In this document: in pieces, positions 772 to 34,205 of the stretch | How the letters are laid out: each line of letters starts with the position of its first letter | Position numbering within the stretch: position 1 is the first letter of the stretch | Virus record (IMG/VR): IMGVR_UViG_2579778753_000004 | Direction: 5' to 3' (one strand) | Source: a virus | Lineage: Duplodnaviria > Heunggongvirae > Uroviricota > Caudoviricetes | DNA: 34,205 nt | Notes under the pieces: model-generated | Seen by the model: the letters and a program-made list of their open reading frames with translations, nothing else | Databases searched by the model: none | Told to the model about the DNA's origin: nothing | Program-made: the position numbers and the translations under genes

Positions 772-953
772 TGAGTAATTATGCGCTAGTTAAAAATGGC
801 GTCGTTGAAAATGTTGTTGTATGGGATGGCACTGGAGACATTTTCGATGATTATATTACTGTGAATATTGACGACATATCGGCTGGTATCGACTGGACAT
901 ATGACGGAGAGGCATTTGCCCCTCCGCCAGAAATTACTCCGCAGGAGGCGTAG
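771..953 (+). CDS. Small protein coupled to the alternative fibre tip (putative cognate assembly chaperone)
   Basis: ATG overlaps the TAA of the upstream module (ATAATGA); 60 aa; converges on the 3' end of the minus-strand assembly gene. Confidence 0.4.
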   Translation: MSNYALVKNGVVENVVVWDGTGDIFDDYITVNIDDISAGIDWTYDGEAFAPPPEITPQEA

Positions 954-1365: not shown

Positions 1366-1367
1366 TT

Positions 1368-10448: not shown

Positions 10449-10450
10449 CG

Positions 10451-10972: not shown

Positions 10973-12399
10973 CAGCTATTCCCCTTCAGGGTTAACAGGT
11001 ATTCCGAGGTGATCTCGGTCTCAAACGTCAGTCGCTCCAGCGGCGGTGGCGGCGTGTATTTGTAGCTCAGCAACAGATGACCGGCGGCCAGCTCCATCTC
11101 TTCATTACGGGCCGGATCAAACCAGCAACTGAAGCCCAGCAGTGCACCGTCGCCAATCAGCTTGCGACCGTAGGCGTTGACCGACTCCGTCAGCGCATCA
11201 ATCAGTGCCTGGGTAATCGGCATGTCGATGTACTGCTGGCTGAAATAACGCAGGGACTCGTTGATAACATCACCGGTGCGGCGAACGTTCTCAAAGTTGC
11301 GCATATGGGTGACCGTTGGCCATGCTGCCGTCCGGTTGCCCCACAGACGCAGGCCGCTGCCGTAGCTGCTGAAGACCGTAGTGATGCCCTGTTCGTTGAG
11401 CAGGTTCACCTCGCTCTGCGGGTCATCAATCATTGCCGACAGCTGGCGCTCCACGCCGGTGATACCCAGAATCTCCTGGTTGGAGGACGACCACCAGTAG
11501 CCCTTGTCCAGGTCGACCTTGGCACGCAGACCTGCAGCACGCTGGCTCAGCGGCTCCAGCCGTTCGCTGTTGGTGGCCGCGTCGTACACCTTGACGTGCG
11601 GATAGCACAGACGGACGCGGTCGGAGCTGGTATTGAAGTTAATGGTGCCTTCCGGGCCACGCCCCGCCAGAGCCTGCGCAAAAGTGGTACCAATCGGCGC
11701 GTCGATGTAGGTCACCGCGCCCAGCTTCTCAGCCATGGCGATAAGCTCAACCGAGACGCTGTTCTGGGTGCAGAATACCGGGGCAATCAGAATTTTGGCG
11801 AAGTAGCCAAACAGGTTGAAGCTGTCGTTAAGCAACTTCATGCCGGTACGGTTGCCTGCCGCGTTAACGGTACCGATGATATCAGCCGGGGTGACTTTGG
11901 TCGGATCGGCATAGTTATAGCTGGCCTTCACCGTTGCATCTGCAGCAATGCTTTTACCAAGATTAGTAATCACCCCGGTCTGCGCATCAAGCGAGTAGTC
12001 CTGACCTTCCACATAAGGCTGACCGTCGCTGTCCGGTTTCAGTACCAGCTGCGCGATCACCGGATTAGCCAGCTGTGCCTTGCCCGTCGCCTTTTCGAAT
12101 GTTACGTCTTCATCGGCCACAGCGGTTTTATGCACAGCCGGATCAAGCACGTTAATGACCAGAACGGTGCCTGCCCCATGGTCGTAGATCGCATCCAGTG
12201 CCTGCGGAATGGTAAAGCCAGTGAGCTGGCTGCCAAACGCCGCTGCATCTTTCTCAGACAGGCACTGCACCAGCGTATTGACGTCTCCCATTGGGGCGGT
12301 ACCAATCAGGCCAATGACGGCGGATTTCACCGTTTTAACCGGGCGGGCACCGTTTTCCACCTCAATGGTTTCGACGCCATGCAGATAGTTAGCTGACAT
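10972..12399 (-). CDS. Contractile tail sheath protein (Mu L / P2 FI family)
   Basis: 475 aa, sheath-like size and synteny. Confidence 0.85.
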   Translation of the reverse strand: MSANYLHGVETIEVENGARPVKTVKSAVIGLIGTAPMGDVNTLVQCLSEKDAAAFGSQLTGFTIPQALDAIYDHGAGTVLVINVLDPAVHKTAVADEDVTFEKATGKAQLANPVIAQLVLKPDSDGQPYVEGQDYSLDAQTGVITNLGKSIAADATVKASYNYADPTKVTPADIIGTVNAAGNRTGMKLLNDSFNLFGYFAKILIAPVFCTQNSVSVELIAMAEKLGAVTYIDAPIGTTFAQALAGRGPEGTINFNTSSDRVRLCYPHVKVYDAATNSERLEPLSQRAAGLRAKVDLDKGYWWSSSNQEILGITGVERQLSAMIDDPQSEVNLLNEQGITTVFSSYGSGLRLWGNRTAAWPTVTHMRNFENVRRTGDVINESLRYFSQQYIDMPITQALIDALTESVNAYGRKLIGDGALLGFSCWFDPARNEEMELAAGHLLLSYKYTPPPPLERLTFETEITSEYLLTLKGNS

Positions 12400-12643
12400 G
12401 GGAGTCCTCCGTTTTCACATCGCTGTCGCCGCCGTTCCTGCGCTTTGGTGACTGCACAGCCGGTATGCTGGCGGGTTTAGTCTCTTCAGATACCGGCGTC
12501 AGATGCTTCAGCGCCACCAGTACCTTCACATAGTCATGCTCCTCCGGCAGGGAAACATTCTTCCCCGGCCAGAGCAGGATTTCGGTTCCGTCCGACAGCG
12601 TGACGCCGCTGGCCGGGCCGGAATAGCGGTATTCTTTCATCAC
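12389..12643 (-). CDS. Small conserved Mu-like protein upstream of sheath
   Basis: 84 aa, overlaps both neighbours by a few nt. Confidence 0.5.
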   Translation of the reverse strand: MMKEYRYSGPASGVTLSDGTEILLWPGKNVSLPEEHDYVKVLVALKHLTPVSEETKPASIPAVQSPKRRNGGDSDVKTEDSHVS

Positions 12644-13104
12644 TCGCTTTCCTCATAGTTCACTTCGGTTAACAGCGGGCCGGACGGTAAATCGCTGTCT
12701 TCGATAAAGACGCTTTCGGTTGCGAAGTCGAGAGCGTACTGCCACAGCCCCTTGGCCTCACCGATAAACACCTCACGGGTCAGCCAGATACGGCGGCGGC
12801 AGTTCGGCGGGGTGTAGCCGCCGAGTATGCGGCGGACTGCATCCAGAACGTCAATCGCACCTCTTTTACCGTTGAGCTGGCGGAAGACCACCGTGACGCA
12901 GAGCTGGATAGTCTGAGGCTGGATCACCGCACCAATATCATCGGGTTTGTCGAAGCGTGAACCGGCATAGCTCAGCAGCAACGCCCCGACAGGATGATTC
13001 AGACGGTATTCGGACGGCTTTTCCGGGAAGTACTCCACCTGCAGCTGGGGCAGCTTCTCGCGCAACCGGGCCAGCACAGCATCGAGGACGGGCAGAACGT
13101 TCAT
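12640..13104 (-). CDS. Mu gp37-like head-tail joining protein
   Basis: 154 aa, synteny between gp36-like and sheath genes. Confidence 0.6.
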   Translation of the reverse strand: MNVLPVLDAVLARLREKLPQLQVEYFPEKPSEYRLNHPVGALLLSYAGSRFDKPDDIGAVIQPQTIQLCVTVVFRQLNGKRGAIDVLDAVRRILGGYTPPNCRRRIWLTREVFIGEAKGLWQYALDFATESVFIEDSDLPSGPLLTEVNYEESE

Positions 13105-13550
13105 CAGTATTTCTCCAGTAAGCCGTCGCGCCCGCCAAAGGTGGGGCGACGTGCCCGCGCCCGGATTTCACCGGACTCAGGTACGTCTTTTTGAGTGGAC
13201 TGCAGCCCCAGCGTCAGCTTCCCGTCGCGGATAGCCTCAAGCTGACGCCGGGCCTCTTTGTTGTCGTCTTTGACGGTGTCAGGCAGATCACCTTCAGGAC
13301 GACGGACATACAGGCGGTAACGCACCAGCGTGATGGCAATATCCCGCAGAACGGTAGGCACTTCTGCCAGCGGCAGGGTATAGCGGCCACGAAGGTGCGC
13401 ATCAATCAACTCCCCGGCGTAGCGAACACAGCTGTCCACAACCGTCACATTCACCGTGGCAGGGGTGTCGAAATCCACGACCTCGTTAGTGAGCTGAATC
13501 AGCGTTGACTCAGGCACTTGTTCCTGTAAATCCGCCAGGGTGCAGTACAT
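13104..13550 (-). CDS. Mu gp36-like protein
   Basis: Start reassigned to ATG at 13550 (MYCTLADLQEQ...), 2 nt after the upstream TGA; the ORF-track start at 13679 would overlap the previous gene. Confidence 0.6.
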   Translation of the reverse strand: MYCTLADLQEQVPESTLIQLTNEVVDFDTPATVNVTVVDSCVRYAGELIDAHLRGRYTLPLAEVPTVLRDIAITLVRYRLYVRRPEGDLPDTVKDDNKEARRQLEAIRDGKLTLGLQSTQKDVPESGEIRARARRPTFGGRDGLLEKY

Positions 13551-13551
13551 G

Positions 13552-13908
13552 TCACACCCCGCGCAGGATGCGGATAACATCGCCTTCGGCCAGTGCTTCA
13601 TCCAGCGCAATCCCGGCTGAAATACCTGCCGGGGTGTCGCCTGATGCTGCTGTCTGGGGAACGGCGCAGGCATTTGCATCCGACTGAACGTTCAGCCCCC
13701 TGGCAATCGCGGCACCGGCCTCGACGGCAACAATGCCCAGTACGTTGACCGGGGTTACATCACCGGCTGCGGCATCCACCTCTGCCACGCCGAGCGCGAC
13801 GGCTCCGGCCTGACAGGGGGCGTTATCGGCACCGACAAAGCGCTGTTGCGTCAGCGCCGCACTGGCCGTCACGGTAGTGGTCAGAATGACCTGCTGTGTT
13901 GTACCCAT
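13552..13908 (-). CDS. Gly/Ala-rich small head-region protein
   Basis: 118 aa immediately downstream of the major capsid gene. Confidence 0.5.
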   Translation of the reverse strand: MGTTQQVILTTTVTASAALTQQRFVGADNAPCQAGAVALGVAEVDAAAGDVTPVNVLGIVAVEAGAAIARGLNVQSDANACAVPQTAASGDTPAGISAGIALDEALAEGDVIRILRGV

Positions 13909-13918
13909 GACCGTCTCC

Positions 13919-14872
13919 TTATTTCACGATGTTGGTGACGAGATACCCGGCATCGCCACCGACCACGGCGACTTTGTAGATATCGGTATAACGGCAGTAC
14001 TTCACCTTGCCGCCGACGCCGTCGTATTTATCCGCCACCGGCATCCCTTTACGGCGCAGGGTGTAGCCGAAGGACGGCTCGTTTTCGTCGGCGCTGTCGG
14101 TGCCCGGCTGGGGTTTGCCGACGTAATGCAGCATCAGGTTGTCGCCCCAGATATCAGCCGGGACTTTGTCCTTGTTCTGCGCATCTTTCATGGAGGCCAT
14201 AGAGACCGGCTCGCCGATCACCACATCTTCCAACTGGAAAAGGTCTTTCAGAATTTCGATGGTGATACGCTTGCGCTCGTTGGCTCCAATCGCGGCCTGA
14301 ATCGCCGGGTGGAACTTCAGCAGCGACATGACGCTGGCCCCCATGGTCATCAGGTTTGGGCGCAGGCCGGTTTTGTTACGTACCGCCTCAATGCCACCTT
14401 CAATGATGCCAATTGGATCACCTTTACCACCGACCCAGCGTTCAGCAGCTGCCAGTGCTTTAACGGACGATGCCGGGTAAACGTTTTTGTCCTGCGCCAG
14501 ACGGGCCGCATACAGTTCGCGCTTCAGGTTGACGCCACTGGTCACGCGACGAATGGCCTTGGCCTCTTCGTTGAACATCGACTCCGCCTGCTCGCGGTAG
14601 TCCACCGGCGCGGCCAGATCGTGCTCGTTAAGAACCAGATCCAGTTTGCCGGTCTTCTCACGTACCAGGACGTTACTGTCAGCCCCCACGGCACGCTCGG
14701 TGTCGTACTCAACAAAGGCGGATTTACCGAAGGTCGGGACGGTCACACCTTCCTTATCGGTCTGGACAATGGGGAAGATGCGTTCGCCGATAAATGCGGC
14801 ATTTTTATAACCGCGAGCGATGCTGGTCAGCACCGGGTCAACAACGCGCTTACCCTTTAAATAGTCAGACAT
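13919..14872 (-). CDS. Major capsid protein (Mu T family)
   Basis: 317 aa, N-terminus MSDYLKGKRVVDPVLTSIARGYKNAAF..., downstream of protease/scaffold gene. Confidence 0.85.
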   Translation of the reverse strand: MSDYLKGKRVVDPVLTSIARGYKNAAFIGERIFPIVQTDKEGVTVPTFGKSAFVEYDTERAVGADSNVLVREKTGKLDLVLNEHDLAAPVDYREQAESMFNEEAKAIRRVTSGVNLKRELYAARLAQDKNVYPASSVKALAAAERWVGGKGDPIGIIEGGIEAVRNKTGLRPNLMTMGASVMSLLKFHPAIQAAIGANERKRITIEILKDLFQLEDVVIGEPVSMASMKDAQNKDKVPADIWGDNLMLHYVGKPQPGTDSADENEPSFGYTLRRKGMPVADKYDGVGGKVKYCRYTDIYKVAVVGGDAGYLVTNIVK

Positions 14873-22308: not shown

Positions 22309-23035
22309 AGCTGCCGCCTCCCCAGGTGAGATAACGCGGGGCCAGTTCGTGCAGGATGCGCTGCGGATAATGACGGTTCTCCCGCCAGTTGGCAGTGCTG
22401 CGTCCGGCATTCACCGTGGCGACATGACCAAACCAGCGGGTGCTGTCCAGCCCCTGCTGCGAGGCCAGCCGTTTGTCCCGCTGTACCCAGCCCAGACCAC
22501 CGTTATAGCCTGACAGCGTCATGGCCATACGCTCGCAGTCATTGACGGCGCTGACGCGTTGCCACAGCCAGCGGTCATAGCTGACCAGCGCCCGGATGGC
22601 CCAAGACGGATTAAACGGTTCACGGCTGTTAAGCCCCGGCATCAGCTGACTTATCCAGTCAGCGGTGGTGGGCATAAACTGCGCCAGTCCCTGAGCGCCA
22701 ACCGGCGAGACCGCATCAGGTCGCCAGCCGCTTTCCTGATGCAGCTGCGCGGCGAAGTCGGCCACCGGCGCAGACATTCCCCATTCAAGCCGGGCATTAC
22801 GGATCACATCGTCGCGATACTGCAGCGCGGTCTGCGGTGGCTGGGCAGCGCGGGCCTGACTGAAGAAGCCGCCACACCAGAGCAGCCAGGCTACCGTTAC
22901 TGAACCAAAGAGCTGCCACCAGAAACTGTGCTTACCCGTTCGGGCCTGCCCGTGGCGGGCCAGTTCGATGCCCAGCCCCAGCAGTACCAGCACGGCCCAG
23001 ACAACCTGAGGCCAGTACATATAGAGGGTCATCAT
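22298..23035 (-). CDS. Lytic transglycosylase endolysin (SLT domain) with hydrophobic N-terminus (possible SAR-type)
   Basis: SLT catalytic motif ...QESGWRPDAVSPVGAQGLAQFMP...; about 60 N-terminal residues with two hydrophobic stretches. Confidence 0.8.
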   Translation of the reverse strand: MMTLYMYWPQVVWAVLVLLGLGIELARHGQARTGKHSFWWQLFGSVTVAWLLWCGGFFSQARAAQPPQTALQYRDDVIRNARLEWGMSAPVADFAAQLHQESGWRPDAVSPVGAQGLAQFMPTTADWISQLMPGLNSREPFNPSWAIRALVSYDRWLWQRVSAVNDCERMAMTLSGYNGGLGWVQRDKRLASQQGLDSTRWFGHVATVNAGRSTANWRENRHYPQRILHELAPRYLTWGGGSCVD

Positions 23036-23385
23036 TAAAGCCCCATCGCTACGGCCAGACAGACTGCAGCAACAATCAGCGCACGGCGGATTAGCGCAGC
23101 AGAAAAGACCAGGTGAAGGCCAGTCTGGACAGGGAAGCGACCATCAGCCATCAGCCTGTCATCATGCTTCAGGTACTGACCGGGACGGGCTTTGGGGAAA
23201 AGCGAACGGTCAAGCCAGTAGCCCAATACTGCCGCCAGCGTGATGAGTGATAGCTTGTAGACAACCACCGGCAGCTGCTGGGGCGATACCAGACCGATGG
23301 TGCCGAGCAGCAGCACAGCGGTCAGCAGCCAGCCGCTGAGACGTGGCTTTTTAACAGGGGGAATGAATTTTTTCAGGTTTTTCAT
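23035..23385 (-). CDS. Putative holin (three predicted transmembrane segments)
   Basis: Start at ATG 23385 (MKNLKKF...) with RBS AAGGAGA; first gene of the late operon, just upstream of the endolysin. Confidence 0.5.
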   Translation of the reverse strand: MKNLKKFIPPVKKPRLSGWLLTAVLLLGTIGLVSPQQLPVVVYKLSLITLAAVLGYWLDRSLFPKARPGQYLKHDDRLMADGRFPVQTGLHLVFSAALIRRALIVAAVCLAVAMGL

Positions 23386-23497
23386 GAGCGTCTCCTTGTG
23401 TAGTGGAGACAGCATCACAAATGGTCGGGGAAAGGGATTTTAAACAGCGTTAATAGTGAGGATGCAGACGTGAACCGCATGATGGCTTTGAAAGAAC

Positions 23498-23529
23498 GAC
23501 CAGCCCGGTGCGGTAACACCAGGCTGGTC
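23498..23529. promoter_or_regulatory. 32-bp palindrome in the divergent late/dam control region
   Basis: GACCAGCCCGGTG-CGGTAA-CACCAGGCTGGTC, 13-bp arms with one mismatch; GACCAG recurs in direct orientation at 23558 and 23583. Confidence 0.4.
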
Positions 23530-23632
23530 ATCAACCCACAGGTATGCACTGTGAGCCGACCAGGGTTCAGTCAGTCTCGCGAGACCAGACTAGCCTGCCA
23601 TATTTTCATTGATTGCAAAAGGCTTACGGATA

Positions 23633-24403
23633 ATGAAAGAACAATCTTTACCCATCGTCCCATGGATTGGCGGTAAACGTCGTCTGGCGAAGCATATTTT
23701 ACCATTGTTTCCGGCCCATACCTGCTATGTGGAGCCGTTCTGCGGGGCAGCTGCGCTCTATTTCCTAAAGACTCCCAGCAAGACCGAAGTCATTAACGAT
23801 ATCAACGGGGAACTGGTGAACCTCTATCGGGTGGTCAAGCATCATCTGGAAGAATTTATTCGCCAGTTCAAATGGGCGCTGGTCAGCCGTCAGATTTACA
23901 AATGGTTGCAGGATACGCCGGAAGAAACGCTCACCGACATTCAGCGGGCGGCCCGGTTCTACTACCTGCAGAAACAGGCATTTGGCGGCAAGGTCGCCGA
24001 TCACACATTCGGTACCTCTACAACCAGTGCGCCGCGCTTCAATTTGCTGCGTATTGAGGAAGAACTGTCGATGGCACACCTGCGCCTGTCGAGAACGCTG
24101 ATAGAGCATCTGGACTGGCACCAGTGCATAGAGCGATATGATCGCCCGCATACGCTGTTCTACTGTGACCCACCGTACTGGGGAACGGAAGGCTATGGTG
24201 TGGAGTTCGGGCTGGAAAACTATGATCACATGGCAGATTTAGCGCGAAGGATCAAAGGGAAGATGATTATATCAGTGAACGATATCCCGGAAATGCGGCA
24301 GGTATTCAACGGTCTGAACATGCAGTCGGTTGATATCAGCTACAACCTTAAGGTAACAGGCAAACCCAGCCCGAAGAAAGAGCTGGTAATTTGTAATTTT
24401 TGA
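23633..24403 (+). CDS. DNA N6-adenine methyltransferase, Dam-like (orphan)
   Basis: N-terminal PWIGGKRRL and catalytic DPPY (YCDPPYWGTEGYG) motifs; start taken at ATG 23633 (the ORF track starts at a TTG at 23609). Confidence 0.8.
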   Translation: MKEQSLPIVPWIGGKRRLAKHILPLFPAHTCYVEPFCGAAALYFLKTPSKTEVINDINGELVNLYRVVKHHLEEFIRQFKWALVSRQIYKWLQDTPEETLTDIQRAARFYYLQKQAFGGKVADHTFGTSTTSAPRFNLLRIEEELSMAHLRLSRTLIEHLDWHQCIERYDRPHTLFYCDPPYWGTEGYGVEFGLENYDHMADLARRIKGKMIISVNDIPEMRQVFNGLNMQSVDISYNLKVTGKPSPKKELVICNF

Positions 24404-24420
24404 AAGAGGTAGTTAAAGGT

Positions 24421-24443
24421 GGTGGTGCATCTGCAGCACCACC
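24421..24443. terminator. Candidate terminator hairpin between convergent dam and lipoprotein genes
   Basis: GGTGGTGC-ATCTGCA-GCACCACC, 8-bp GC-rich stem; on the minus strand it is followed by UUUAACUACCUCUUU. Confidence 0.4.
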
Positions 24444-24450
24444 TAAACAT

Positions 24451-24984
24451 TTAATCCTGCCTTGGACAAGTCCAATAATCATTATCTGGCTCTGGTGAAT
24501 AAGCTTTCAAACAACCTGCTCGCGGGGTCTTACCATCATCTGTCATAGGAACTTTTTCCTTATCAAGTTTCACGGTCAGGTCTCCACCAGGAACATCCGT
24601 TTTATCGAAAAAAACAGCCTGACATGCTGATTTAGATATTTTCACTTCGTGGGCATTATTTGATATGAACAAATAACAATTATGACCAGAGGCTATGTAG
24701 TCACTTGGAATATTATTTTCGTCTTTAATATGAAACTGCACCGTTGTCACCGGGCGTTCGCTATCCTCGGATACTTCGACTTTTTCAAAACTGTCCGCGT
24801 ACTTATCCAGGCCGGGGAGTTGTTGGCGAATAAACGGTAATTCGCGATTTACAACCGGATTATCTGTTTCAACGCTAAAAACCGCGTGCTCCTTAGCTGT
24901 GGTGGACGTATCAGCAGGATCGGTATTATCTCCACACCCAGATAAAACAAATATCAACGGTAAAAATAATTTGCGCATAGTCAT
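24451..24984 (-). CDS. Secreted lipoprotein, low-GC accessory gene downstream of the repressor
   Basis: MTMRKLFLPLIFVLSGC lipobox LSGC; a hand count over 100 nt gave about 44% GC versus visibly GC-richer flanks; same strand as, and 36 bp downstream of, the repressor gene; RBS GAGGT. Confidence 0.7.
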   Translation of the reverse strand: MTMRKLFLPLIFVLSGCGDNTDPADTSTTAKEHAVFSVETDNPVVNRELPFIRQQLPGLDKYADSFEKVEVSEDSERPVTTVQFHIKDENNIPSDYIASGHNCYLFISNNAHEVKISKSACQAVFFDKTDVPGGDLTVKLDKEKVPMTDDGKTPRAGCLKAYSPEPDNDYWTCPRQD

Positions 24985-25019
24985 GTCCTTATACCTCTAA
25001 TGTTCTTAATAGGAACAGA

Positions 25020-25430
25020 TTAACCCGTATTTTTTAATCTTTCGAACGCTGCGGACAGCTCCTTAAGCTGTTTTTCCATATCAATCATTCGCTGTTTTTC
25101 CTCAGCGCCTCGCAGCAACTCTTTTCGCACCTCTGGCTCCAGTTGGTTGAGCAGCTCCAATAACTTCAGATCAGACTGGTTGAAATGCTGCTCCTGATTA
25201 GCTGGCTGTGCTTTCTCTACCCCAACAGCTTCCCCTTTACCAGTAAGTAGCCAATCTATTGATATGTTCAAATGGGTGCTTAGCGCAACAAGAGCCTCTG
25301 CATTAGGTTCTCTCTCTCCACGCAGATAGTTTTGAAGTGAGCGATATGGAATTTTTGACAAGTCTGACAATGCCTTAATTGTCAGACCCTTAGCATCCAT
25401 CGCTTCGCGCAATCTCTCTTTTATACTCAT
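25020..25430 (-). CDS. Prophage repressor (XRE/Cro-CI type HTH, C-terminal coiled coil)
   Basis: Start at ATG 25430 (MSIKERLREAMDAKGLTIKALSDLSKIPYRSLQNYLRGE...); divergent from the early operon. Confidence 0.75.
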   Translation of the reverse strand: MSIKERLREAMDAKGLTIKALSDLSKIPYRSLQNYLRGEREPNAEALVALSTHLNISIDWLLTGKGEAVGVEKAQPANQEQHFNQSDLKLLELLNQLEPEVRKELLRGAEEKQRMIDMEKQLKELSAAFERLKNTG

Positions 25431-25446
25431 TTGAACATATCTCAAT

Positions 25447-25474
25447 TTGACATACCCGTTTGGGTGCGTACAAT
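25447..25474 (+). promoter_or_regulatory. Early promoter (Pe-like) with overlapping operator repeats
   Basis: -35 TTGACA (25447-25452), 16-bp spacer, -10 TACAAT (25469-25474); inverted TTGGGT/ACCCAA pair brackets the -10 and a further ACCCAA lies downstream. Confidence 0.6.
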
Positions 25475-25518
25475 AGACCCAATAGAGTACATCATAACCC
25501 AACAGGAACACGGTGCAT

Positions 25519-25743
25519 ATGAACAAACAACAAGTTCGGGCACGGCTGGTTGAAAGAGGCAGTAGCTTGCGCCAGTTCGCGCTTAACGCGGGCTATGAGC
25601 CACGAACAGTCACCCAGGCTGTCAGCCGCTGGGCAGGCAAAAGCGAACTTCCACGCGGTCGTTTGACTTATCGGATTTTGCGAGACCTTTCGGTCGCAAT
25701 AGGCAAAGAAGTTACCCCCGGCATCCTCAAGGAGGCGTCATGA
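25519..25743 (+). CDS. ner: Ner-like DNA-binding protein
   Basis: 75 aa ...LRQFALNAGYEPRTVTQAVSRWAG...; first gene of the early operon, RBS AGGAA. Confidence 0.7.
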   Translation: MNKQQVRARLVERGSSLRQFALNAGYEPRTVTQAVSRWAGKSELPRGRLTYRILRDLSVAIGKEVTPGILKEAS

Positions 25744-26045
25744 GTAAACCAAATACATCAAGCTCAGGTACCCGTATTTTGCGTGTCCTTAAGGCTTTAC
25801 GCGGTCACGCTCTGAACGGTGTTTCTAACGGCGAGCTGGCGTCAGCTCTGGGCGAGTCCCCGGCGAATATCAATCGGGCGCTCAATACCCTTATCGAAGA
25901 AGGACTGGCCCTGAAACTGGATAACGGGCGTTTTGCCCCAGGAGTCCAGCTCTTACAAATCGCCATGGCGCACAGTACCGAAATGGCGCGGGCGCAGGAT
26001 CGTATCAATGAAATTAACCAGCGTGTTATGGCTGGTAGTCGCTAA
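25740..26045 (+). CDS. Small winged-helix DNA-binding protein
   Basis: 101 aa, HTH-like ILRVLKALRGHALNGVSNGELASALGESPANINRALNTLIEEGLA; ATGA overlap with ner; RBS AAGGAGG. Confidence 0.55.
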   Translation: MSKPNTSSSGTRILRVLKALRGHALNGVSNGELASALGESPANINRALNTLIEEGLALKLDNGRFAPGVQLLQIAMAHSTEMARAQDRINEINQRVMAGSR

Positions 26046-26054
26046 GGAGTTGAA

Positions 26055-26963
26055 ATGGGACGCACAAAATCACAACCAGTTGAACTAGTGGAAGATGCAC
26101 CGCTGACCGATGGTCTCAGTGTCAGTCTTAATGCTATGTCCGAACATCGCCTCGAAATCATGCAGCAGTTTGGTGATGGCCTGCCGTATGAACGTGATCG
26201 TATTGTCCATGAAACACGTTTTTATATGGCTCAGAGTGCTGAAGCCATGCTGGAGGCGGGTAAACGACTGGTAATTCTCAAAGAAAATGAACCACATGGT
26301 GACTTCATCGACATCGTTGAGTCTCAGTTGTCCCTATCCAAACGTACCGCGCAGGTGATGATGCAAGCATCCCTCAAATATTTGTCTCCCAAGCTTGAAC
26401 CAAAAGCGCAAGCGCTTGCGCTTTTGGGTAAAACAAAGCTGTTTGAGTTGATGACGGAAGATGACGAAGACCTCGTCGAATTAGCCGATGGCGGCACGAT
26501 TGCTGGTATGAGCCTCGATGATATTGATCGCATGACAAGCCGCGAACTGAAAGCGGCCCTACGCGAAGCGCGTGAAACCAACGCAGCACAACAGCGCGTG
26601 CTTGCCGACAAAAACGAAAAAATCGACTCGCTCTCCACAAAACTGGAGAAGAAATCCCGTATCCAACCGCCCAAGCCTGACGAAGAGGTGAAGAAGCTGC
26701 GTGCGGAAGTTACAGCGTTAGCGGTTGAGGCGGAATCTGCCATCGCCGTTCGACTGTCCAGCGCCTTTGAGACCCTGTGCGCATACTGTGCTGAAAATAT
26801 GATTGATACCCCCAGAGACTTTATGGCCGGTCTGGTCTGCCAGTTGGAAAGCACCGCGCGTAGCCTGCGCTCCACATTTGACCTGCCGGACGAGCCGACA
26901 GGCAACGCCGCCCCTTCATGGCTGACTGACCCGACGCCAGAGATTAACGGGCAGGAGGCATAA
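26055..26963 (+). CDS. Conserved early protein of unknown function (DUF3102-like, from memory)
   Basis: 302 aa, coiled-coil middle region, RBS AAGGAG; lies between Ner and transposase. Confidence 0.5.
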   Translation: MGRTKSQPVELVEDAPLTDGLSVSLNAMSEHRLEIMQQFGDGLPYERDRIVHETRFYMAQSAEAMLEAGKRLVILKENEPHGDFIDIVESQLSLSKRTAQVMMQASLKYLSPKLEPKAQALALLGKTKLFELMTEDDEDLVELADGGTIAGMSLDDIDRMTSRELKAALREARETNAAQQRVLADKNEKIDSLSTKLEKKSRIQPPKPDEEVKKLRAEVTALAVEAESAIAVRLSSAFETLCAYCAENMIDTPRDFMAGLVCQLESTARSLRSTFDLPDEPTGNAAPSWLTDPTPEINGQEA

Positions 26964-26966
26964 CCC

Positions 26967-28736
26967 ATGAGTGCCGCCCTGACTGAACGACTGGTTTATG
27001 TTGCCCGCGCGGCACGTGACGCGGGGCATGGTAAGCGTGGTGCGATATATGATGCCGCCTGCGCCGAACTGGGCATTTCCCGCGCCACCCTGCTGCGCAA
27101 GCTGAAGGAGGTATCAGTGACTGACAAACGTAAAAAACGCGCCGATGCCGGGCGCAGTGCCCTGAGCCGCGACGAAGCCGCGCTGATATCTGCCACGCTG
27201 CGCGAGGCCACCCGTAAGAACGGTAAGCGCCTGTATTCCATCGCGGATGCGGTGGAGACCCTGCGGTCAAACGGCTTTATCACTGCTGGCAGAACGGACG
27301 AGGCCACAGGCGAGTTTTTCCCGCTGTCCGAGGACACCATCAGCCGCGCCCTGCGGAACTATGGTCTGCACCCGGAACAGCTTGACGCACCGGCCCCGTC
27401 GTCCGAGATGGCCAGCCTGCATCCCAATCACGTCTGGGAGATTGATGCCTCACTTTGTACGCTTTACTACCTGAGCAACGGCCATAAAGGGTTGCAGGTG
27501 ATGGACAGCTCGAAGTTCTACAAGAACAAGCCTGCCAACATCGCCCGCATCGCCAGTGACCGCGTGTGGAGTTACGAGATTACCGACCATACCAGCGGCT
27601 GGATTTACGTTGAGTACGTGATGGGTGCGGAATCTGGTGAGAACCTCTGTTCTGTGCTTATCAACGCCATGCAGGAGCGCGGCGGCGCGGACGTGCTGCA
27701 CGGCGTGCCGAAAATACTCTACCTTGATCCCGGTTCGGCGAACACCGCTGGCATGACGAAAAACATGTGCCGCTCGCTGGGCATCAATCTGATAGCGCAC
27801 AAGCCGCATAACGCCCGCGCCACCGGGCAGGTGGAAAAGGCCCGTGACATTATCGAACGTAAACTGGAGCCGGGTCTCAAATTCCAGCCGGTTCATAGCC
27901 TGGACGAACTGAACGCGCTGGCGGTGAAATGGCGCAGCCACTTTAACGCCACGGCGGTCCACAGCCGCCACGGTAAAACCCGCACGGATATCTGGCTGAA
28001 GATTACTGCTGACCAGCTGAAAAAAGCGCCATCCGTTGAGGTTTGCCGCGAACTGGCGGTGGCCGCACCGGAACTCCGTAAGGTCACACCAAAACTGCGC
28101 GTCTCGTTCCGGGGCAATGAGTTTGACGTTTCGACGGTACCGGGCGTACTGGTCGGCGAAAAACTGATGATTACCCGTAACCCGTGGCGCAGCGATGTGG
28201 CGCAGGTGGTGCTGACCGGTGAGGACGGTCACGAGACGTTCTTCCTGGTCGAGGAGGTCAGAAAGAACGAGTTCGGCTTTGCCGAAAGCGCGGCGGTATT
28301 TGGCGAAAACTACAAAGCCCTGCCGGAGACCCCGGCGCAGACGGCGGCAAAAGAAATCGAAGAGCTGGTTACGGGCACCGATAACGCCACCGATGCAGCT
28401 GCTGCACGCAAGGCGAAGGCGCTGCCGTTCGGCGGGCGACTTGACCCGTACAAACATATCGACGACACCACGCTTCCTGCCTATATGCCGAAGCGCGGTC
28501 AGGCTTCAGACGTGCGCGGGCCGCGTATTGAGCAGCGTCCGCTGACCCATGTGGAGGCGGCGAAAGCCCTGCGCGAGAAGTTTGGCGCTAACGGCCATAT
28601 CTGGACGCCGGAACATTACCGCCAGTTAACGGCGCAGTACCCGGATGGCGTACCTGAAGCCGCGCTGGATGAGGTGATGGTTACCCTGACCACTCCGGCC
28701 CGCAACAGCGTTATCAGCATCGTTAACGGTAACTGA
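26967..28736 (+). CDS. DDE transposase (MuA-like)
   Basis: 589 aa; candidate catalytic Asp at ...VWEIDASL... and ...LYLDPGSANT...; followed by the ATPase gene; RBS AGGAGG. Confidence 0.85.
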   Translation: MSAALTERLVYVARAARDAGHGKRGAIYDAACAELGISRATLLRKLKEVSVTDKRKKRADAGRSALSRDEAALISATLREATRKNGKRLYSIADAVETLRSNGFITAGRTDEATGEFFPLSEDTISRALRNYGLHPEQLDAPAPSSEMASLHPNHVWEIDASLCTLYYLSNGHKGLQVMDSSKFYKNKPANIARIASDRVWSYEITDHTSGWIYVEYVMGAESGENLCSVLINAMQERGGADVLHGVPKILYLDPGSANTAGMTKNMCRSLGINLIAHKPHNARATGQVEKARDIIERKLEPGLKFQPVHSLDELNALAVKWRSHFNATAVHSRHGKTRTDIWLKITADQLKKAPSVEVCRELAVAAPELRKVTPKLRVSFRGNEFDVSTVPGVLVGEKLMITRNPWRSDVAQVVLTGEDGHETFFLVEEVRKNEFGFAESAAVFGENYKALPETPAQTAAKEIEELVTGTDNATDAAAARKAKALPFGGRLDPYKHIDDTTLPAYMPKRGQASDVRGPRIEQRPLTHVEAAKALREKFGANGHIWTPEHYRQLTAQYPDGVPEAALDEVMVTLTTPARNSVISIVNGN

Positions 28737-28746
28737 GGAGGAAGGC

Positions 28747-29913
28747 ATGCTGGTACTGAAGCAACAACTGAAAGAGGCCCGCATCCCGCAGGCGGTGGTG
28801 GCAAGAGCCGTCGCCGTTTCCGAGGCCACGCTGGCCCAGATTGTGAACCATAACGAGTGGCCACGCACCAGCCCCGAAGAGGTACGCCAGCGTCTGGCGT
28901 TGTATCTGGAAAGTAAGGGGATTGATACAGCGAAAAGTTTTGATGCTGCACAGGGCGCTGTCACGCCCCGTACAGCGGGTACTACCGATAAAACCAACCT
29001 CAGTGAGGAAGAGAACATGTTACTCAAAAAGCAGGTGTTATTTCCAGCAACCAAAAAAGCGTTTGGCCTTTTCCGTGATCCGTTCGCCGATGAAGCCATG
29101 CAGGGCGCGGACGATGTGTTCACCACGCCGGATATCCGCTACGTGCGTGAGGCGCTGTTCCAGACCGCCCGCCATGGTGGCTTTCTGGCGGTTATCGGCG
29201 AGTCCGGTGCGGGTAAATCCACGCTGCGCCGCGACCTGATTGAACGCGTCAACCGCGAGAACGCGCCGGTGATTGTAATTGAGCCATACATCATCGCCAT
29301 GGAAGACAACGACGTGAAGGGCAAAACCCTGAAGGCGGCAGCTATCGCCGAGGCCATCATCAGCACCATCGCGCCGCTGGAGAGTATCAAACGCAGCCAG
29401 GACGCCCGCTTCCGCCAGTTGCACCGCGTCCTGAAGGACAGCAGTCAGGCGGGTTTCAGCCACGTTCTGGTGATTGAGGAGGCCCACAGCCTTCCCATTC
29501 CGACGCTGAAGCACCTTAAACGCTTCTTCGAACTGGAGTCCGGCTTCAAAAAACTGCTGTCCATCGTGCTGATTGGCCAGCCTGAACTGGCGGACAAACT
29601 GTCCGAACGCAACATGGAAGTCCGTGAGGTCGTCCAGCGCTGCGAGGTGGTTGAATTGCTGCCGCTGGACAACAGCCTCGAAGAGTTTCTGACGTTCAAA
29701 CTGCAACGTGCCGGTAAGCAGCTGGCCGACATCATGGACGCCAGCGCAGTGGAAGCCATCCGCGCCCGTCTGAGCAATCTGGGTGGTAGCCGTAAAAGCA
29801 TGGTCAGCCTGCTGTATCCGCTGGCCGTCAGTAACCTGGTGATAGCCGCCATGAATCTGGCTGCTGAAATCGGGGTTCCGCAGGTCAACGCCGACGTCGT
29901 CAAAGGAGTTTAA
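28747..29913 (+). CDS. Transposition helper AAA+ ATPase (MuB-like)
   Basis: 388 aa, Walker A GESGAGKST, Walker B-like HVLVIEEAH; immediately downstream of the transposase. Confidence 0.8.
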   Translation: MLVLKQQLKEARIPQAVVARAVAVSEATLAQIVNHNEWPRTSPEEVRQRLALYLESKGIDTAKSFDAAQGAVTPRTAGTTDKTNLSEEENMLLKKQVLFPATKKAFGLFRDPFADEAMQGADDVFTTPDIRYVREALFQTARHGGFLAVIGESGAGKSTLRRDLIERVNRENAPVIVIEPYIIAMEDNDVKGKTLKAAAIAEAIISTIAPLESIKRSQDARFRQLHRVLKDSSQAGFSHVLVIEEAHSLPIPTLKHLKRFFELESGFKKLLSIVLIGQPELADKLSERNMEVREVVQRCEVVELLPLDNSLEEFLTFKLQRAGKQLADIMDASAVEAIRARLSNLGGSRKSMVSLLYPLAVSNLVIAAMNLAAEIGVPQVNADVVKGV

Positions 29914-29915
29914 TC

Positions 29916-30185
29916 ATGAAATCCATCGCCGATATCAACCAGCAGATGAACAAGGTGCAGTCCGCCATTATGGCGCTCAACGCCATGAACACTACCGTGC
30001 AGAGCGTCATGATTGCTGGCAGTAAGCCGGTTATCCGTATCGCCCGCAACGGGCACTGTGCCCGCCTGCTGGAGCAGGGCAAAGCGAGTTATACCCATGT
30101 TGGCCATGACGGCTCAGGGCGCTTCCGTCAGGGCGTCTTTGAGTTGCATGGCTGCCGTATTACCTGGTCAGAGTCGTTACATTAA
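29916..30185 (+). CDS. Hypothetical early protein
   Basis: 89 aa, RBS AAAGGAG, tightly coupled to B. Confidence 0.5.
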   Translation: MKSIADINQQMNKVQSAIMALNAMNTTVQSVMIAGSKPVIRIARNGHCARLLEQGKASYTHVGHDGSGRFRQGVFELHGCRITWSESLH

Positions 30186-30202
30186 CCATAAGGTGAACAG
30201 AG

Positions 30203-30814
30203 ATGAGCGAAGTAAATAAAGAAAACTACATGAAAGACCGCAAGGGGCGTCTGGTGCCGGTTGACCAGGTGTCTGACTATGACCTTGCGATGGACTCTTT
30301 CGTTAAAGAACAGGTTGTCGCCGCGAAGGTTAAACGCGATGAACTCAGTGACTTCAAGCGTCGTGCCTTTGACGAGTGCTATGCCTGGCTTGACCTTGTG
30401 GCCGAGAAGTACGGCAGAACGCGTGGCGGTGCCAAAGGCAACGTGACCTTCAGCAGCTTCGACGGTGCTCAGCAGATCACCATCCGCGTGCAGGAAACCC
30501 TGACCTTCGGGCCAGAGCTGCAGATTGCCAAAGACCTGATAGACGAGTGCGTCACCGAGTGGTCGGAAGGCGCGAACGCCAACCTGCGGGCCATCATCAG
30601 CGATGCTTTTCAGGTGGACAAAGAGGGCCAGCTTAATACCGGACGTATTCTTTCCCTGCGCCGCGTCAAGATTCAGGACGAGCGCTGGAACCGGGCAATG
30701 GAGGCCATATCGGAATCACTGCAGGTGGCAATGTCCAAAACCTATATTAATTTCCGGGAGAAAGATAAACACGGGAAGCTAATTAATATTCCGTTAGATA
30801 TCGCTGCCATTTAA
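30203..30814 (+). CDS. Conserved Mu-like early protein (DUF3164-like, from memory)
   Basis: 203 aa, RBS AGGTGA. Confidence 0.5.
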   Translation: MSEVNKENYMKDRKGRLVPVDQVSDYDLAMDSFVKEQVVAAKVKRDELSDFKRRAFDECYAWLDLVAEKYGRTRGGAKGNVTFSSFDGAQQITIRVQETLTFGPELQIAKDLIDECVTEWSEGANANLRAIISDAFQVDKEGQLNTGRILSLRRVKIQDERWNRAMEAISESLQVAMSKTYINFREKDKHGKLINIPLDIAAI

Positions 30815-30892
30815 TTTTAATTCAATTTCTTTTTATTTCGGCGTCAGTGCCGTGGGCTTCTGCACGCCGAAAACAGCATTAAGGAATAAATC

Positions 30893-31081
30893 ATGTCCAT
30901 CAAATGTATCAACTGCCAGAAAGGTATCACCACCCTGAAGTTCAGCGACGCCAGCGTCATTTCCTCCGGTAAGTACCGCGTACCAGCCGTCCTCATCACG
31001 CTGGTATGCCCACACTGTAGCCAGCATTACTACACCGAAGTCCCGGCCATGGAATTCATCCCTTGTGAGGCAAAGAAATGA
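30893..31081 (+). CDS. Small zinc-ribbon protein
   Basis: 62 aa with C-x2-C ... C-x2-C (CINCQ ... CPHCSQ); RBS AAGGAA. Confidence 0.5.
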   Translation: MSIKCINCQKGITTLKFSDASVISSGKYRVPAVLITLVCPHCSQHYYTEVPAMEFIPCEAKK

Positions 31082-31179
31082 TTACTGCAAAAGAAGCCGA
31101 AAAACGGACCCGTGAAATTGTCGCGGAATATATCAGTGAATGTGGTTGTGAAAATCCCAACCATATCGGCAGGTATTAA
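31078..31179 (+). CDS. Micro-ORF (33 aa), translationally coupled
   Basis: ATGA overlap with the upstream stop; MITAKEAEKRTREIVAEYISECGCENPNHIGRY. Confidence 0.3.
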   Translation: MITAKEAEKRTREIVAEYISECGCENPNHIGRY

Positions 31180-31193
31180 TCAAATTAATCAGC

Positions 31194-31349
31194 ATGGCTT
31201 CACACGCCATCGTAGCAACAAATGGCCTAGATCAGGCTATTTACGTTCTTCACGCCACCAGTGACCACCTGAGAAAAATGCCGCCGCTGTACGAGCTGGA
31301 AATTACTGAGGACGGCCACGTGAAAGTTATCGGCGTATCACGCCATTGA
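31194..31349 (+). CDS. Micro-ORF (51 aa)
   Basis: ATG-initiated frame in a gene-dense operon; weak RBS. Confidence 0.3.
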   Translation: MASHAIVATNGLDQAIYVLHATSDHLRKMPPLYELEITEDGHVKVIGVSRH

Positions 31350-31364
31350 TTTGGGGAAGATAAG

Positions 31365-31661
31365 ATGAAAGGCATGAAATTATATAACCGTTCGACGATC
31401 TACAATCTGGCCCTCAAAACCTTCGGCCCAGAAGCTCAGGCTCTGAAGCTGATGGAAGAAGCTGCCGAACTGGCCGCTGCTGCTGCCCGCAACATGAACG
31501 GACTGGGCAATGAAGTTGATCTGGCAGGCGAACTGGCTGACGTTGAAATCATGATTGAACAGTTCCGCCTAAACGGGATGGGCCTGATGATTGATTTTCA
31601 TAAGCAGAAAAAGCTGGAACGCCTTGCCGAACGCCTGGGGGTGACTTATGCCGCAGAATAA
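31365..31661 (+). CDS. MazG-like nucleotide pyrophosphohydrolase-type small protein (tentative)
   Basis: 98 aa; acidic helix motifs LMEEAAELAAAAA and LAGELADVEIMIEQ; RBS GGGGAAG. Confidence 0.45.
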   Translation: MKGMKLYNRSTIYNLALKTFGPEAQALKLMEEAAELAAAAARNMNGLGNEVDLAGELADVEIMIEQFRLNGMGLMIDFHKQKKLERLAERLGVTYAAE

Positions 31662-32337
31662 TGAAAAGCTGCTGGAGAAGTTAAAAAAGCTACTTGCGCT
31701 GGCTAAATCCGATAACCCCCATGAAGCGGCACTGGCACTGCAACGCGCCCAGAAACTGATGCAGGCCTATAACATCACCCAGGCTGACCTCGCACTCAGT
31801 GATATTGATGAAAGCGTCAGTAACTACTGGGCTGCAGGTAGCGTTAATCCGCCGCGTTATATGCTGGGTCTGCTGGATATTATCCAGGTGGCATTTGGCG
31901 TTAAGTCTATTATTCACTCCGGCTTTAAACCCGGCGTTGGCTTTTACGGTAATAAAGACCGGGTTGAACTGGCCTCATATACATGGGAGGTACTGGCCAG
32001 ACAGTTAATCATGGCCCGTAAAAACTATATTCGACAGCAGAATAAAAGAATCAAAAACACGACCAAGACCAGCCGTGGTGACAAATTTGCCGAAGGGTGG
32101 GTTCTGGCCGTGCGTAGCGAGGTTCATTTATTTGCTATGTCCCGCGAAGAACGGGAGCTGGCAAACCTCTGGCTTGAACAAAAATACCCTGATTCAGGAA
32201 CAACCTCTGGCCGCAAAGCCGGTAAATCCCGTGACGCGGACATGTCCCGCCACATCGGTTACAGAGAGGGAGAAAACGTCCGTCTACATCAGCCTGTCAG
32301 CGGGCAGGAACAGCGGAAGCTGGGGAGTGGCTTATGA
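31648..32337 (+). CDS. DUF2786-like protein
   Basis: 229 aa; N-terminal KLLALAKSDNPHEAALALQRAQKLM as I recall for DUF2786; RBS GGGGGTGA. Confidence 0.5.
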   Translation: MPQNNEKLLEKLKKLLALAKSDNPHEAALALQRAQKLMQAYNITQADLALSDIDESVSNYWAAGSVNPPRYMLGLLDIIQVAFGVKSIIHSGFKPGVGFYGNKDRVELASYTWEVLARQLIMARKNYIRQQNKRIKNTTKTSRGDKFAEGWVLAVRSEVHLFAMSREERELANLWLEQKYPDSGTTSGRKAGKSRDADMSRHIGYREGENVRLHQPVSGQEQRKLGSGL

Positions 32338-32549
32338 TGGCTGAATCAATTGTATGTGCCTTGTTCTGGTATGGTCTCGTGGGGTGGTGTACTGCTGAAC
32401 TGCACCGCCGTTCAGGGTTTTACTCACGTTACAGCGGTACCGGACACTGGATCAGTTGGGCCGTTATGTTCCTGTGCTGGCCTGTCGCGCTTCCTTTATA
32501 TGTCGACTATATCGGTGGCGCAGGTAAAAGGAGTGGCAATGATGACTAA
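32334..32549 (+). CDS. Small membrane protein (two predicted transmembrane helices)
   Basis: 71 aa; ATGA overlap with the upstream gene; RBS GGGGAG. Confidence 0.5.
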   Translation: MMAESIVCALFWYGLVGWCTAELHRRSGFYSRYSGTGHWISWAVMFLCWPVALPLYVDYIGGAGKRSGNDD

Positions 32550-32967
32550 GCAGCGTCTTATTCAACTCATTCATATTGCCCGCAGCGACCTCCAGATGGA
32601 TGAGGACACCTACCGCCAGATGCTACAGGGGCTGACCGGCAAAGCCTCAACCAAAGGGATGGATACCCCACAACTAAACCGCGTGCTGGAATCAATGAAA
32701 AAGAAAGGCTTTCGCATTAAGCCTGCCGGGAAAGCCAAGTCCGGCTTACCGCTCGACAGCCATCCGCAGTCAAAGAAAATCCGTGCGCTATGGCTTGAAA
32801 TGGCTGCCGCAGGCATCGTCCGTGACAGTTCAGAGCAGGCGCTGGCGCTGTGGGTTAAACGGGAAACCGGCATCAGCGCGTTACGCTGGCTCAGCAATGA
32901 GCAGGCAAGTAGCGTGATTGAGAAACTGAAGAAGTGGCAGCGCAGAGCTGCGGGAGTGAAGCAATGA
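32539..32967 (+). CDS. gemA: GemA-like protein (Mu gp16 family)
   Basis: Start at ATGATG 32539 with RBS AAAGGAG; ...LIQLIHIARSDLQMDEDTYRQML... aligns with Mu GemA as I recall it. Confidence 0.65.
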   Translation: MMTKQRLIQLIHIARSDLQMDEDTYRQMLQGLTGKASTKGMDTPQLNRVLESMKKKGFRIKPAGKAKSGLPLDSHPQSKKIRALWLEMAAAGIVRDSSEQALALWVKRETGISALRWLSNEQASSVIEKLKKWQRRAAGVKQ

Positions 32968-33353
32968 GCGACCTGAATCAGTTTCGTAGTAAAGGGCCGG
33001 AACTGTTGGTGGAACTGGCACAGCATACCTCTGAGACTGTCCGCGAGATTATTGATATCGAACCCGCAGTTGCCGACCAGATTGGTCAGGCCGTCGCGAA
33101 CCGCATGATGCAGGTCTGGGGTGGGCAAAACGTCTATTTTCCGATGGGCATGGTCTGGAAGGTCAGCCAGCGCGACCGGGAAATTTTCCTGGAGTTTGAC
33201 GGGCGCAACCATCACGAACTGGCCCGCAAATTTGGTGTTTCACTACAGTGGGTTTACAGCGTGGTGAAGCGGGTCAGAAAAGAAGAACTGGATCGGATGC
33301 AGGGCAAACTGTTTGATGGCGAACCTGATGCCGATACAGGGAAAAAGGAGTAA
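32964..33353 (+). CDS. mor: Mor/C-family transcriptional activator
   Basis: ...VWGGQNVYFPMG...FDGRNHHELARKFGVSLQWVYSVVKR... aligns with Mu Mor (GGQ.VYIP ... FNGRN..EL...YGV....VY) from memory; ATGA overlap with gemA. Confidence 0.75.
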   Translation: MSDLNQFRSKGPELLVELAQHTSETVREIIDIEPAVADQIGQAVANRMMQVWGGQNVYFPMGMVWKVSQRDREIFLEFDGRNHHELARKFGVSLQWVYSVVKRVRKEELDRMQGKLFDGEPDADTGKKE

Positions 33354-33382
33354 TATCTGCAATCAGGCTGGTGCGAGTTCTG

Positions 33383-33434
<52 letters not shown>

Positions 33435-33443
33435 ATCCAGTCT

Positions 33444-33514
33444 CTTCCCATGTTGACCCAGTACTTCCCATAATTATCTCACTTATCCCCTGTCATTTAT
33501 CTCAAGTCTAATCA
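33444..33514. repeat. Prophage right terminus with subterminal direct repeats (putative transposase-binding sites)
   Basis: CTTCCCAT at 33444 and 33464 (20-bp period); TTATCTC at 33475 and 33498 (23-bp period); element ends ...AATCA at 33514. Confidence 0.55.
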
Positions 33515-34205
33515 GCTCACGGCCCTGATAGATAACGCCTTTTGAATCGCAAACCACGATGTTATGTTTTTGCAGACCCAGCGCTACCAGCAGGTTCATA
33601 CAGGCGATTGCTGCGGCACCCGCGCCGGAAACCACCATCCGCACGTCGGAGATGTTTTTCTCCACCACGCGCAAGCCGTTGAGGATGGCGGCAGTGCTGA
33701 TGATTGCCGTGCCGTGCTGATCGTCGTGGAATACCGGAATATTCATCCGCTCGCGCAGTTTCTGTTCAATATAGAAACATTCTGGCGCTTTAATGTCTTC
33801 GAGGTTGATTCCGCCGAAGGTCGGTTCGAGCGCAGCGACAACTTCAATAAATTTGTCCGGGTCGAGTTCATCAACTTCAATGTCAAATACATCAATCCCG
33901 GCGAATTTCTTAAACAGAACGCCCTTGCCTTCCATCACCGGTTTGCCAGCCAGCGCGCCAATGTTGCCTAACCCCAGCACCGCCGTACCGTTAGAGATCA
34001 CCGCCACCAGGTTACCGCGCGCGGTATATTTGTAGGCTTTTAACGGGTCTTTTTCGATTTCAAGACAAGGTGCGGCAACGCCTGGTGAGTAGGCCAGCGC
34101 CAGATCGCGCTGCGTTGCCAGAGGCTTGGTTGGAGAAACCTGGATTTTCCCTGGAACTGGAAATTCATGGAAATCAAGTGCACTTTGTTTTAACTGGTCA
34201 TCCAT
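33483..34205 (-). pseudogene. maeB: maeB 5' fragment (NADP-dependent malic enzyme) interrupted by the prophage
   Basis: The translation matches the N-terminal ~229 residues of E. coli MaeB as I recall them ([53 protein letters not shown]...GVIYQGRE), then diverges into [10 protein letters not shown]-stop read from phage DNA. Host-derived DNA is 33515-34205. Confidence 0.8.

Follow-up and report, generated by a model that had tools for sequence, protein, structure and literature searches.

The window analysed here is a stretch of DNA of 34,205 nucleotides whose right-hand edge coincides with the start codon of the malic enzyme gene maeB. Everything to the left of the gene fragment, from position 1 to position 33514, is the part of a BcepMu-type prophage that falls inside the window, as delimited with the help of a near-identical prophage in gadC of E. 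coli strain CFS3292. The window is 100% identical to its source, scaffold KK736492.1 of E. coli MGH 57 (GCA_000692755.1), and likewise to Logan contig SRR1204059_40. The gadC prophage of CFS3292 is 34,463 bp long and shares 99.98% identity with the MGH 57 prophage over 31.8 kb. At the invertase-proximal end, approximately 0.8 to 2.6 kb of the prophage is located outside the window, on the far side of a scaffold gap next to position 1, and the insert as a whole measures approximately 34 to 36 kb. That the prophage is continuous in MGH 57 is deduced from the scaffold and from the CFS3292 prophage, which is complete and near-identical.

The early arm of the prophage is encoded on the plus strand between approximately 25.7 and 33.4 kb and comprises genes for an HTH regulator, a DUF3102 protein, the transposase, an ATPase, a DUF3164 protein, a DUF2786/DUF7168 protein, GemA (PF06252), and Mor. 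The transposase (26967..28736, +) is a DDE (rve) enzyme of 589 aa that belongs to the Tn552/B3/BcepMu family, as judged by Pfam rve and tblastn; its Pfam rve score of 31.4 bits is slightly below the gathering score of 32.6 bits. Directly downstream of the transposase gene lies the gene for its transposition partner, an AAA+ ATPase of the ExeA family (28747..29913, +; 388 aa; Pfam AAA_22, 3.4e-20), which carries the RefSeq name ‘ExeA family protein’. The last gene of the early arm encodes a Mor-family transcription activator of 129 aa (32964..33353, +; Pfam PF08765, 1.3e-42, and RefSeq annotation); it reads towards the prophage terminus and is convergent with the truncated maeB. The middle of the prophage encodes a Dam-type methylase and a CI-type repressor, the latter divergently transcribed, and the minus strand carries the lysis genes, Mu-like head genes, and P2-like tail genes. 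The insert looks like a complete myovirus prophage.

The methylase gene, which encodes a D12-class N6-adenine DNA methyltransferase (Dam-like), stands alone at 23609-24403 (+) between the lysis cassette and the repressor region, and BcepMu has no counterpart of it at the same position. Base composition also varies along the window. Within the structural arm (2000-23000), G+C content is 56-61% in most 1-kb intervals and 49% in one, and it is 51% in the last 1-kb interval, which is half phage and half maeB fragment. The G+C content of E. coli is approximately 51%. Such a difference would be in keeping with kinship to phages that infect Burkholderia and Pseudomonas, hosts of high G+C content.

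At the left edge, the window starts directly after a 100-N gap in KK736492.1, in a region that corresponds to window positions 1-1868 and to positions 10391-14038 of locus L003, taken from the MGH 57 scaffold. Positions 1-188 and 1681-1868 of the window are 188-bp perfect inverted repeats inside tail-fibre genes, beside a Gin-like invertase. The two flanks of the gap, 1,680 bp each, are perfect inverted copies of one another, and the flipped copy of the segment abuts the invertase side without a 188-bp repeat. Most likely, the segment is invertible, determines host range, and entered the assembly in both of its orientations.

The two halves of maeB

The 5ʹ fragment of maeB occupies positions 33515..34205 on the minus strand and consists of nt 1-691 of the gene, that is, codons 1-230 and the first base of codon 231. 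Its identity is evident from megablast and Pfam. The 691 nt hit annotated maeB in 5,425 of 5,426 complete E. coli genomes, with 691/691 identities (E = 0) to maeB of strain E2863 and many other strains, and all megablast matches to maeB end at window position 33515. The junction between maeB and phage DNA is absent from all 5,426 complete genomes by the same method. The break follows maeB nt 691 and turns codon 231 into a hybrid, C|TG, that replaces proline by leucine. Read directly from the sequence, the phage-derived tail (33483..33514, -) supplies two nucleotides of this hybrid codon, nine sense codons that encode IRLEINDRG, and the stop codon TAA at 33483-33485.

Together, these parts form a fusion ORF of 240 codons on the minus strand (33483..34205), whose ATG begins at the last base of the window and whose product is MaeB residues 1-230 followed by a 10-residue tail. 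An exact match to the protein is encoded on the Logan contig and on an NCBI scaffold of more than 1 Mb, and it has been deposited, from E. coli MGH 57, as KDG63638.1 with the annotation ‘NADP-dependent malic enzyme’. The initial annotation had described a truncated malic-enzyme fusion ORF at these positions, interrupted at about codon 230 and extending 11 codons into phage DNA. The ORF and the maeB origin of the fragment were borne out, the exact site of the break is codon 231, and the figure of 11 holds when both the hybrid codon and the stop codon are included. The alignment to an uninterrupted maeB that it had called for fixes the junction to the nucleotide, with host sequence extending to 33515 and the phage terminus ending at 33514.

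Pfam assigns the malic N-terminal domain (PF00390, 1.8e-33) to the 5ʹ fragment, in which PF03949 is represented by just positions 3-77 of its 258-position profile (approximately 30%). The maeB promoter is located outside the window, and the talA-maeB intergenic region is intact on the source contig. Other truncated MaeB N-terminal proteins fall into the same 90% cluster as the fusion protein, but those inspected are frameshift variants or partial genes and not this phage fusion. Several, from other public E. coli assemblies, are truncations of 252-253 aa with frameshifts at approximately codons 222-228, near the insertion point; they may reflect sequencing errors at a short homopolymer or independent maeB pseudogenes.

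The remainder of the gene, which the initial annotation had proposed to seek beyond the left prophage end, is indeed there: maeB nt 686-2280 directly adjoins the other end of the prophage on scaffold KK736492.1. Beyond this 3ʹ part comes the eut operon, beginning with eutS and eutP, and talA and tktB lie upstream of the 5ʹ fragment, the same neighbourhood that surrounds the intact maeB of strain E2863. The two fragments overlap by a 6-bp target-site duplication. One copy is located at 33515..33520, reading GCTCAC on the plus strand and GTGAGC in the sense of maeB (nt 686-691), and the same hexamer recurs at L003 14819-14824, where it abuts the other prophage terminus.

When the prophage and one copy of GTGAGC were removed in silico, the locus aligned with that of E2863 without gaps over 4,267 bp at 99.88% identity. 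The reconstructed maeB is open over 759 codons with a single substitution (I273M), and the two fragments joined are 99.9% identical to full-length MaeB. Its domain set, consisting of the malic N-terminal, NAD(P)-binding, and PTA-like domains, is whole only with both fragments. Since in-silico excision restores a colinear locus and an intact maeB, the event is a clean, simple insertion. E. coli genomes contain a single copy of maeB.

The far side of the insertion has a fusion of its own. Next to the invertase-proximal prophage end is the gene for a 193-aa serine recombinase (Resolvase and HTH_7 domains). This invertase gene, in the region L003 14159-14818 beyond the left edge of the window, reads outward and stops 78 nt before the terminus. 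The maeB 3ʹ fragment that follows lies in an in-frame ORF of 555 codons, made up of 24 phage codons and MaeB residues 230-759. This ORF starts with a TTG at L003 14746, 6 nt past the invertase stop, and has in-frame ATGs at codons 16 and 29; inspection of the sequence before these candidate starts revealed no good Shine-Dalgarno motif. Its domains are PF03949 positions 96-230 and a complete PTA-like domain (PF01515, 1.2e-104), and the 3ʹ fragment matches PDB 8jzo over residues 229-759. At the invertase-side terminus, one frame stays open over 24 codons, for which the chance expectation is approximately 30%, and at the Mor-proximal terminus all three entering frames stop within 0-10 codons.

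Terminator scans were made at both ends. Between the invertase stop and the phage end, nothing exceeded the expectation from shuffled sequence, and a host gene downstream of the invertase end could receive read-through transcription. From the fusion-ORF stop to mor, the scan likewise gave nothing above the shuffled expectation; because no terminator-like site was found in this interval, a transcript of the 5ʹ fragment would be predicted to run antisense into mor. Two weak sigma-70-like matches at 33405-33474 (+) face outward, antisense to the maeB fragment. With three promoter-like sites found compared with 0.9 +/- 1.0 expected in shuffled sequence, such matches are barely above chance.

Prophage termini and other insertion sites

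The Mor-proximal terminus (33354..33514) is non-coding and ends in ...TCTAATCA, which gives 5ʹ-TG when read inward; similarity among copies of the prophage stops at 33514. The ends were defined from four insertions, located in maeB of MGH 57, gadC of CFS3292, rlmC of 21KM1392, and dsdA/dsdX of S12. In these, the prophage extends from 5ʹ-TGATGCG to TCTAATCA-3ʹ and thus has TG...CA termini. All four insertions are flanked by 6-bp duplications, and all of these differ: GCTCAC in maeB, CGTTGC in gadC, CTATGG in rlmC, and AATGTG in dsdA/dsdX. In KM389306.1, this terminus is followed by yet another flank, the fifth, which is unrelated to the others. A 5-bp duplication of the Mu kind was considered as well. 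The maeB and gadC insertions are ambiguous on this point, as a C precedes the TG in both, and the rlmC and dsdA/dsdX insertions rule it out. The base before TG is C, C, G, and G in the four insertions, and in every case it is identical to base six of the flank on the other side.

Near the Mor-proximal tip are two related motifs, GAGATAAATG at 33494-33503 and GAGATAATTA at 33471-33480, located 12 and 35 nt from the end. The other prophage terminus has a motif resembling G(A/C)GATAAATG at the same two distances, 12 and 35 nt. These motifs are presumably transposase-binding sites, because both ends of BcepMu carry a similar motif, GNGATATTTC, at the same two distances.

The same phage end (33354-33514) is present in 640 of the 5,426 complete E. 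coli genomes (approximately 12%), at up to three places per genome and once on a plasmid. Two of the copies elsewhere are 100% identical to it, and further ones are at least 95% identical. At least a dozen host genes or gene fragments adjoin the phage end among the matches listed, including gadC, rumB/rlmC, dsdX, gspL, irp2, and gcd. A 6-bp duplication combined with TG-CA ends is the recognised footprint of phage transposases of the B3/Tn552 family (PMC8705779), and BcepMu-type transposases are Tn552-related and go with TG...CA termini (PMC2628397). Because the varied insertion sites, the 6-bp duplications, and the TG-CA ends match this footprint, the phage entered maeB by transposition and not by site-specific integration. 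The random transposition that the initial annotation had read from the interruption of a coding gene gains support from the DDE transposase with its AAA+ partner, the TG...CA ends with their 6-bp duplications, the copies at many sites, and the fact that no integrase was found among the early-arm ORFs scanned with Pfam or among the gene names of near-identical annotated prophages.

Mode of insertion and predicted consequences for malic enzyme

The reading that best accommodates these observations, to which we assign a probability of roughly 0.93, is that maeB of E. coli MGH 57 was split when a temperate, transposable phage from the BcepMu/B3 lineage transposed into its codon 231. By this mechanism, the transposase would cut the target with a 6-bp stagger, as expected from its family, and repair of the gaps would duplicate GTGAGC. 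The promoter-proximal fragment would then run 32 nt into the phage terminus and yield the 240-aa product, and the distal fragment, devoid of a promoter, would be left at the other prophage end.

Two other accounts concern the junction itself. Were maeB the attachment site of a temperate phage of the integrase type, the position would be programmed, and the prophage does encode one site-specific recombinase, the 193-aa serine enzyme near its invertase-proximal end. However, in both size and location this protein corresponds to a Gin/Hin-type invertase, beside the tail-fibre segment with its 188-bp repeats, and an integrase is missing from the early-arm ORFs and annotated gene names just described. 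Moreover, near-identical prophages reside in gadC, rlmC, dsdA/dsdX, and elsewhere with unrelated duplications that share no att core, and the phage is found in maeB in 0 of 5,426 complete genomes; programmed integration is thus vanishingly improbable. It is also conceivable that maeB is truly intact and that the junction represents a chimeric join in the draft or a minority product of transposition, given that induced transposable phages create many new junctions and that, within the prophage, this draft scaffold has both a gap of 100 N and an inverted duplication of 1,680 bp that is apparently an artefact. Such an artefact is extremely unlikely, as the two junctions correspond through an exact 6-bp duplication, excision restores the reading frame, native neighbours flank both sides, and the junction was assembled independently in Logan SRR1204059 (a contig in four samples) and in the NCBI assembly.

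A different question is whether the split gene still functions, either through association of its fragments or through a C-terminal fragment expressed from the invertase transcript with a role of its own. The native promoter region upstream of the 5ʹ fragment is intact, the 555-codon ORF lies in frame behind an outward-facing invertase gene with no terminator-like site found between them, and the PTA-like domain is complete. Against retained function, the Rossmann fold itself is cut, the 24-codon phage frame would be open by chance in approximately 30% of cases, and the ORF has no good Shine-Dalgarno motif. Furthermore, the PTA-like domain of MaeB lacks transferase activity; in the full-length enzyme, it is a module for allostery and oligomerisation. 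Taken together, these points make retained function very unlikely. A more specific version holds that the insertion rewires the gene, with a constitutive invertase gene driving the 555-residue product, which would act alone or reassemble with the 240-residue fragment. If this were true, the lysogen would have a form of malic enzyme under phage control, and the 555-residue product does contain the complete acetyl-CoA-sensing PTA-like domain; we nevertheless regard it as a highly improbable scenario.

Disruption of maeB by transposition, the favoured reading, has a direct bearing on the enzyme. In the solved structures of E. coli MaeB, the malic-enzyme module comprises residues 1-439 (9m2i), the PTA-like module was solved as a separate construct (9ks0), and the latter accounts for the C-terminal approximately 370 residues. 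With the break located in the NAD(P)-binding Rossmann domain, Malic_M positions 3-77 go to the 5ʹ fragment and 96-230 to the 3ʹ fragment. Judging from this division, catalytic competence is not expected of either piece, and the lysogen is likely to be without NADP-malic enzyme, because neither fragment holds a complete catalytic domain. With the native upstream region kept, the 5ʹ fragment is probably expressed as the short 240-aa protein, which is likely to be unstable. Separate expression of the remainder, for which the initial annotation had allowed, is physically possible, and the distal fragment could give rise, at a low level, to a C-terminal polypeptide of 530 MaeB residues.

E. coli also has MaeA and Pck. 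We infer a mild rather than a marked growth phenotype, with little effect on growth on C4-dicarboxylates, because MaeA, Pck, and other parts of central metabolism should buffer the loss. Both Delta-maeB and Delta-maeA Delta-maeB strains of E. coli are routinely constructed and are viable (PMC6048880).

Relatives of the phage and significance of the insertion

By transposase, gene order, and termini, the features on which the comparison was based, the prophage resembles the Burkholderia phage BcepMu (Bcepmuvirus), which, like phiE255, is a transposable myovirus with a Tn552-related transposase. In tblastn, its transposase is 68% identical to that of BcepMu and 69% identical to that of phiE255, in each case over 98% of its length, and 57% identical to that of B3. 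Starting from the Mor-proximal end, the genes for Mor, GemA, the DUF3164 protein, the ExeA-like ATPase, the transposase, and the divergent repressor are colinear with BcepMu, and this order continues through the holin/SLT endolysin, the Mu-like head genes, the P2-like tail genes, and the tail fibres. The ‘DNA transposition protein’ gp08 of BcepMu occupies the same position as the AAA+ ATPase of the prophage. The two phages also share TG...CA termini with two repeated motifs approximately 12 and 35 nt from each end. They differ in host, that of the MGH 57 prophage being a member of the Enterobacteriaceae (E. coli), and in accessory genes: in the MGH 57 prophage, the tail-fibre segment is invertible and accompanied by genes for a Gin-like invertase and a Dam-type methylase, whereas BcepMu has an acyltransferase instead.

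When searched against a phage collection, the early-arm DNA matches only three enterobacterial phage records. These related deposits are Escherichia phage Phi06_2974 B (99.9%), Klebsiella phage KP12 (97%), and Escherichia phage PhiKM (88%); the KP12 genome, which is 97% identical to window positions 23000-33514, is that of a Klebsiella pneumoniae phage. Because a 97% identical genome has been deposited as a Klebsiella phage, the lineage appears to cross genus boundaries within the Enterobacteriaceae.

B3 is a siphovirus, and it reportedly represents the other of two genomic organisations found among phages with Tn552-related transposases. This Pseudomonas phage has in common with the MGH 57 prophage the transposase family, the 6-bp duplication, and TG-CA ends (PMC8705779). 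The prophage also resembles Escherichia phage Mu. Both phages are temperate, transpose almost at random, and inactivate the gene in which they land. Each has genes for a Mor/C-type activator and GemA together with Mu-like head genes, and in each the tail-fibre segment is invertible and accompanied by a serine invertase. However, Mu relies on the MuA transposase and generates a 5-bp duplication, whereas the MGH 57 prophage has a Tn552-related transposase and a 6-bp duplication. In addition, the early operon of Mu reads away from its adjacent end, in contrast to the early arm of the MGH 57 prophage, which reads towards its end. The transposase family and the 6-bp duplication rule out Mu proper. 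The transposase matches 69 phage records; the best 40 of these include no Mu record, and those listed are of the BcepMu or B3 type. The prophage therefore belongs to the BcepMu/B3 group, whose transposases are Tn552-related, and is Mu-like in lifestyle, because it combines the transposase and ATPase of that group with TG...CA ends, 6-bp duplications, insertions at many sites, and the Mor and GemA genes.

Relative to intact E. coli MaeB, a hybrid ME-PTA enzyme (PDB 8jzo), the MGH 57 gene retains its native locus but is split at residue 230/231, and each of its fragments is fused to phage-derived codons.

Gene disruption by transposable phages is the classical property behind the name of Mu. The maeB insertion is a textbook case of insertional disruption in an already described phage family and is not novel in kind. 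It matters mainly for annotation, in that KDG63638.1 should be flagged as a pseudogene fragment. The interpretation in the initial annotation was right in its essentials, and the picture is corrected by the 6-bp duplication, the exact codon of the break, the second in-frame fusion, and the expectation of a mild phenotype. As a naturally occurring maeB mutant, E. coli MGH 57 could also serve in studies of how much MaeB contributes to NADPH supply. Since the end of this phage is common, occurring in approximately 12% of complete E. coli genomes, and often lies within genes, the lineage appears to act as a recurrent natural mutagen of E. coli.
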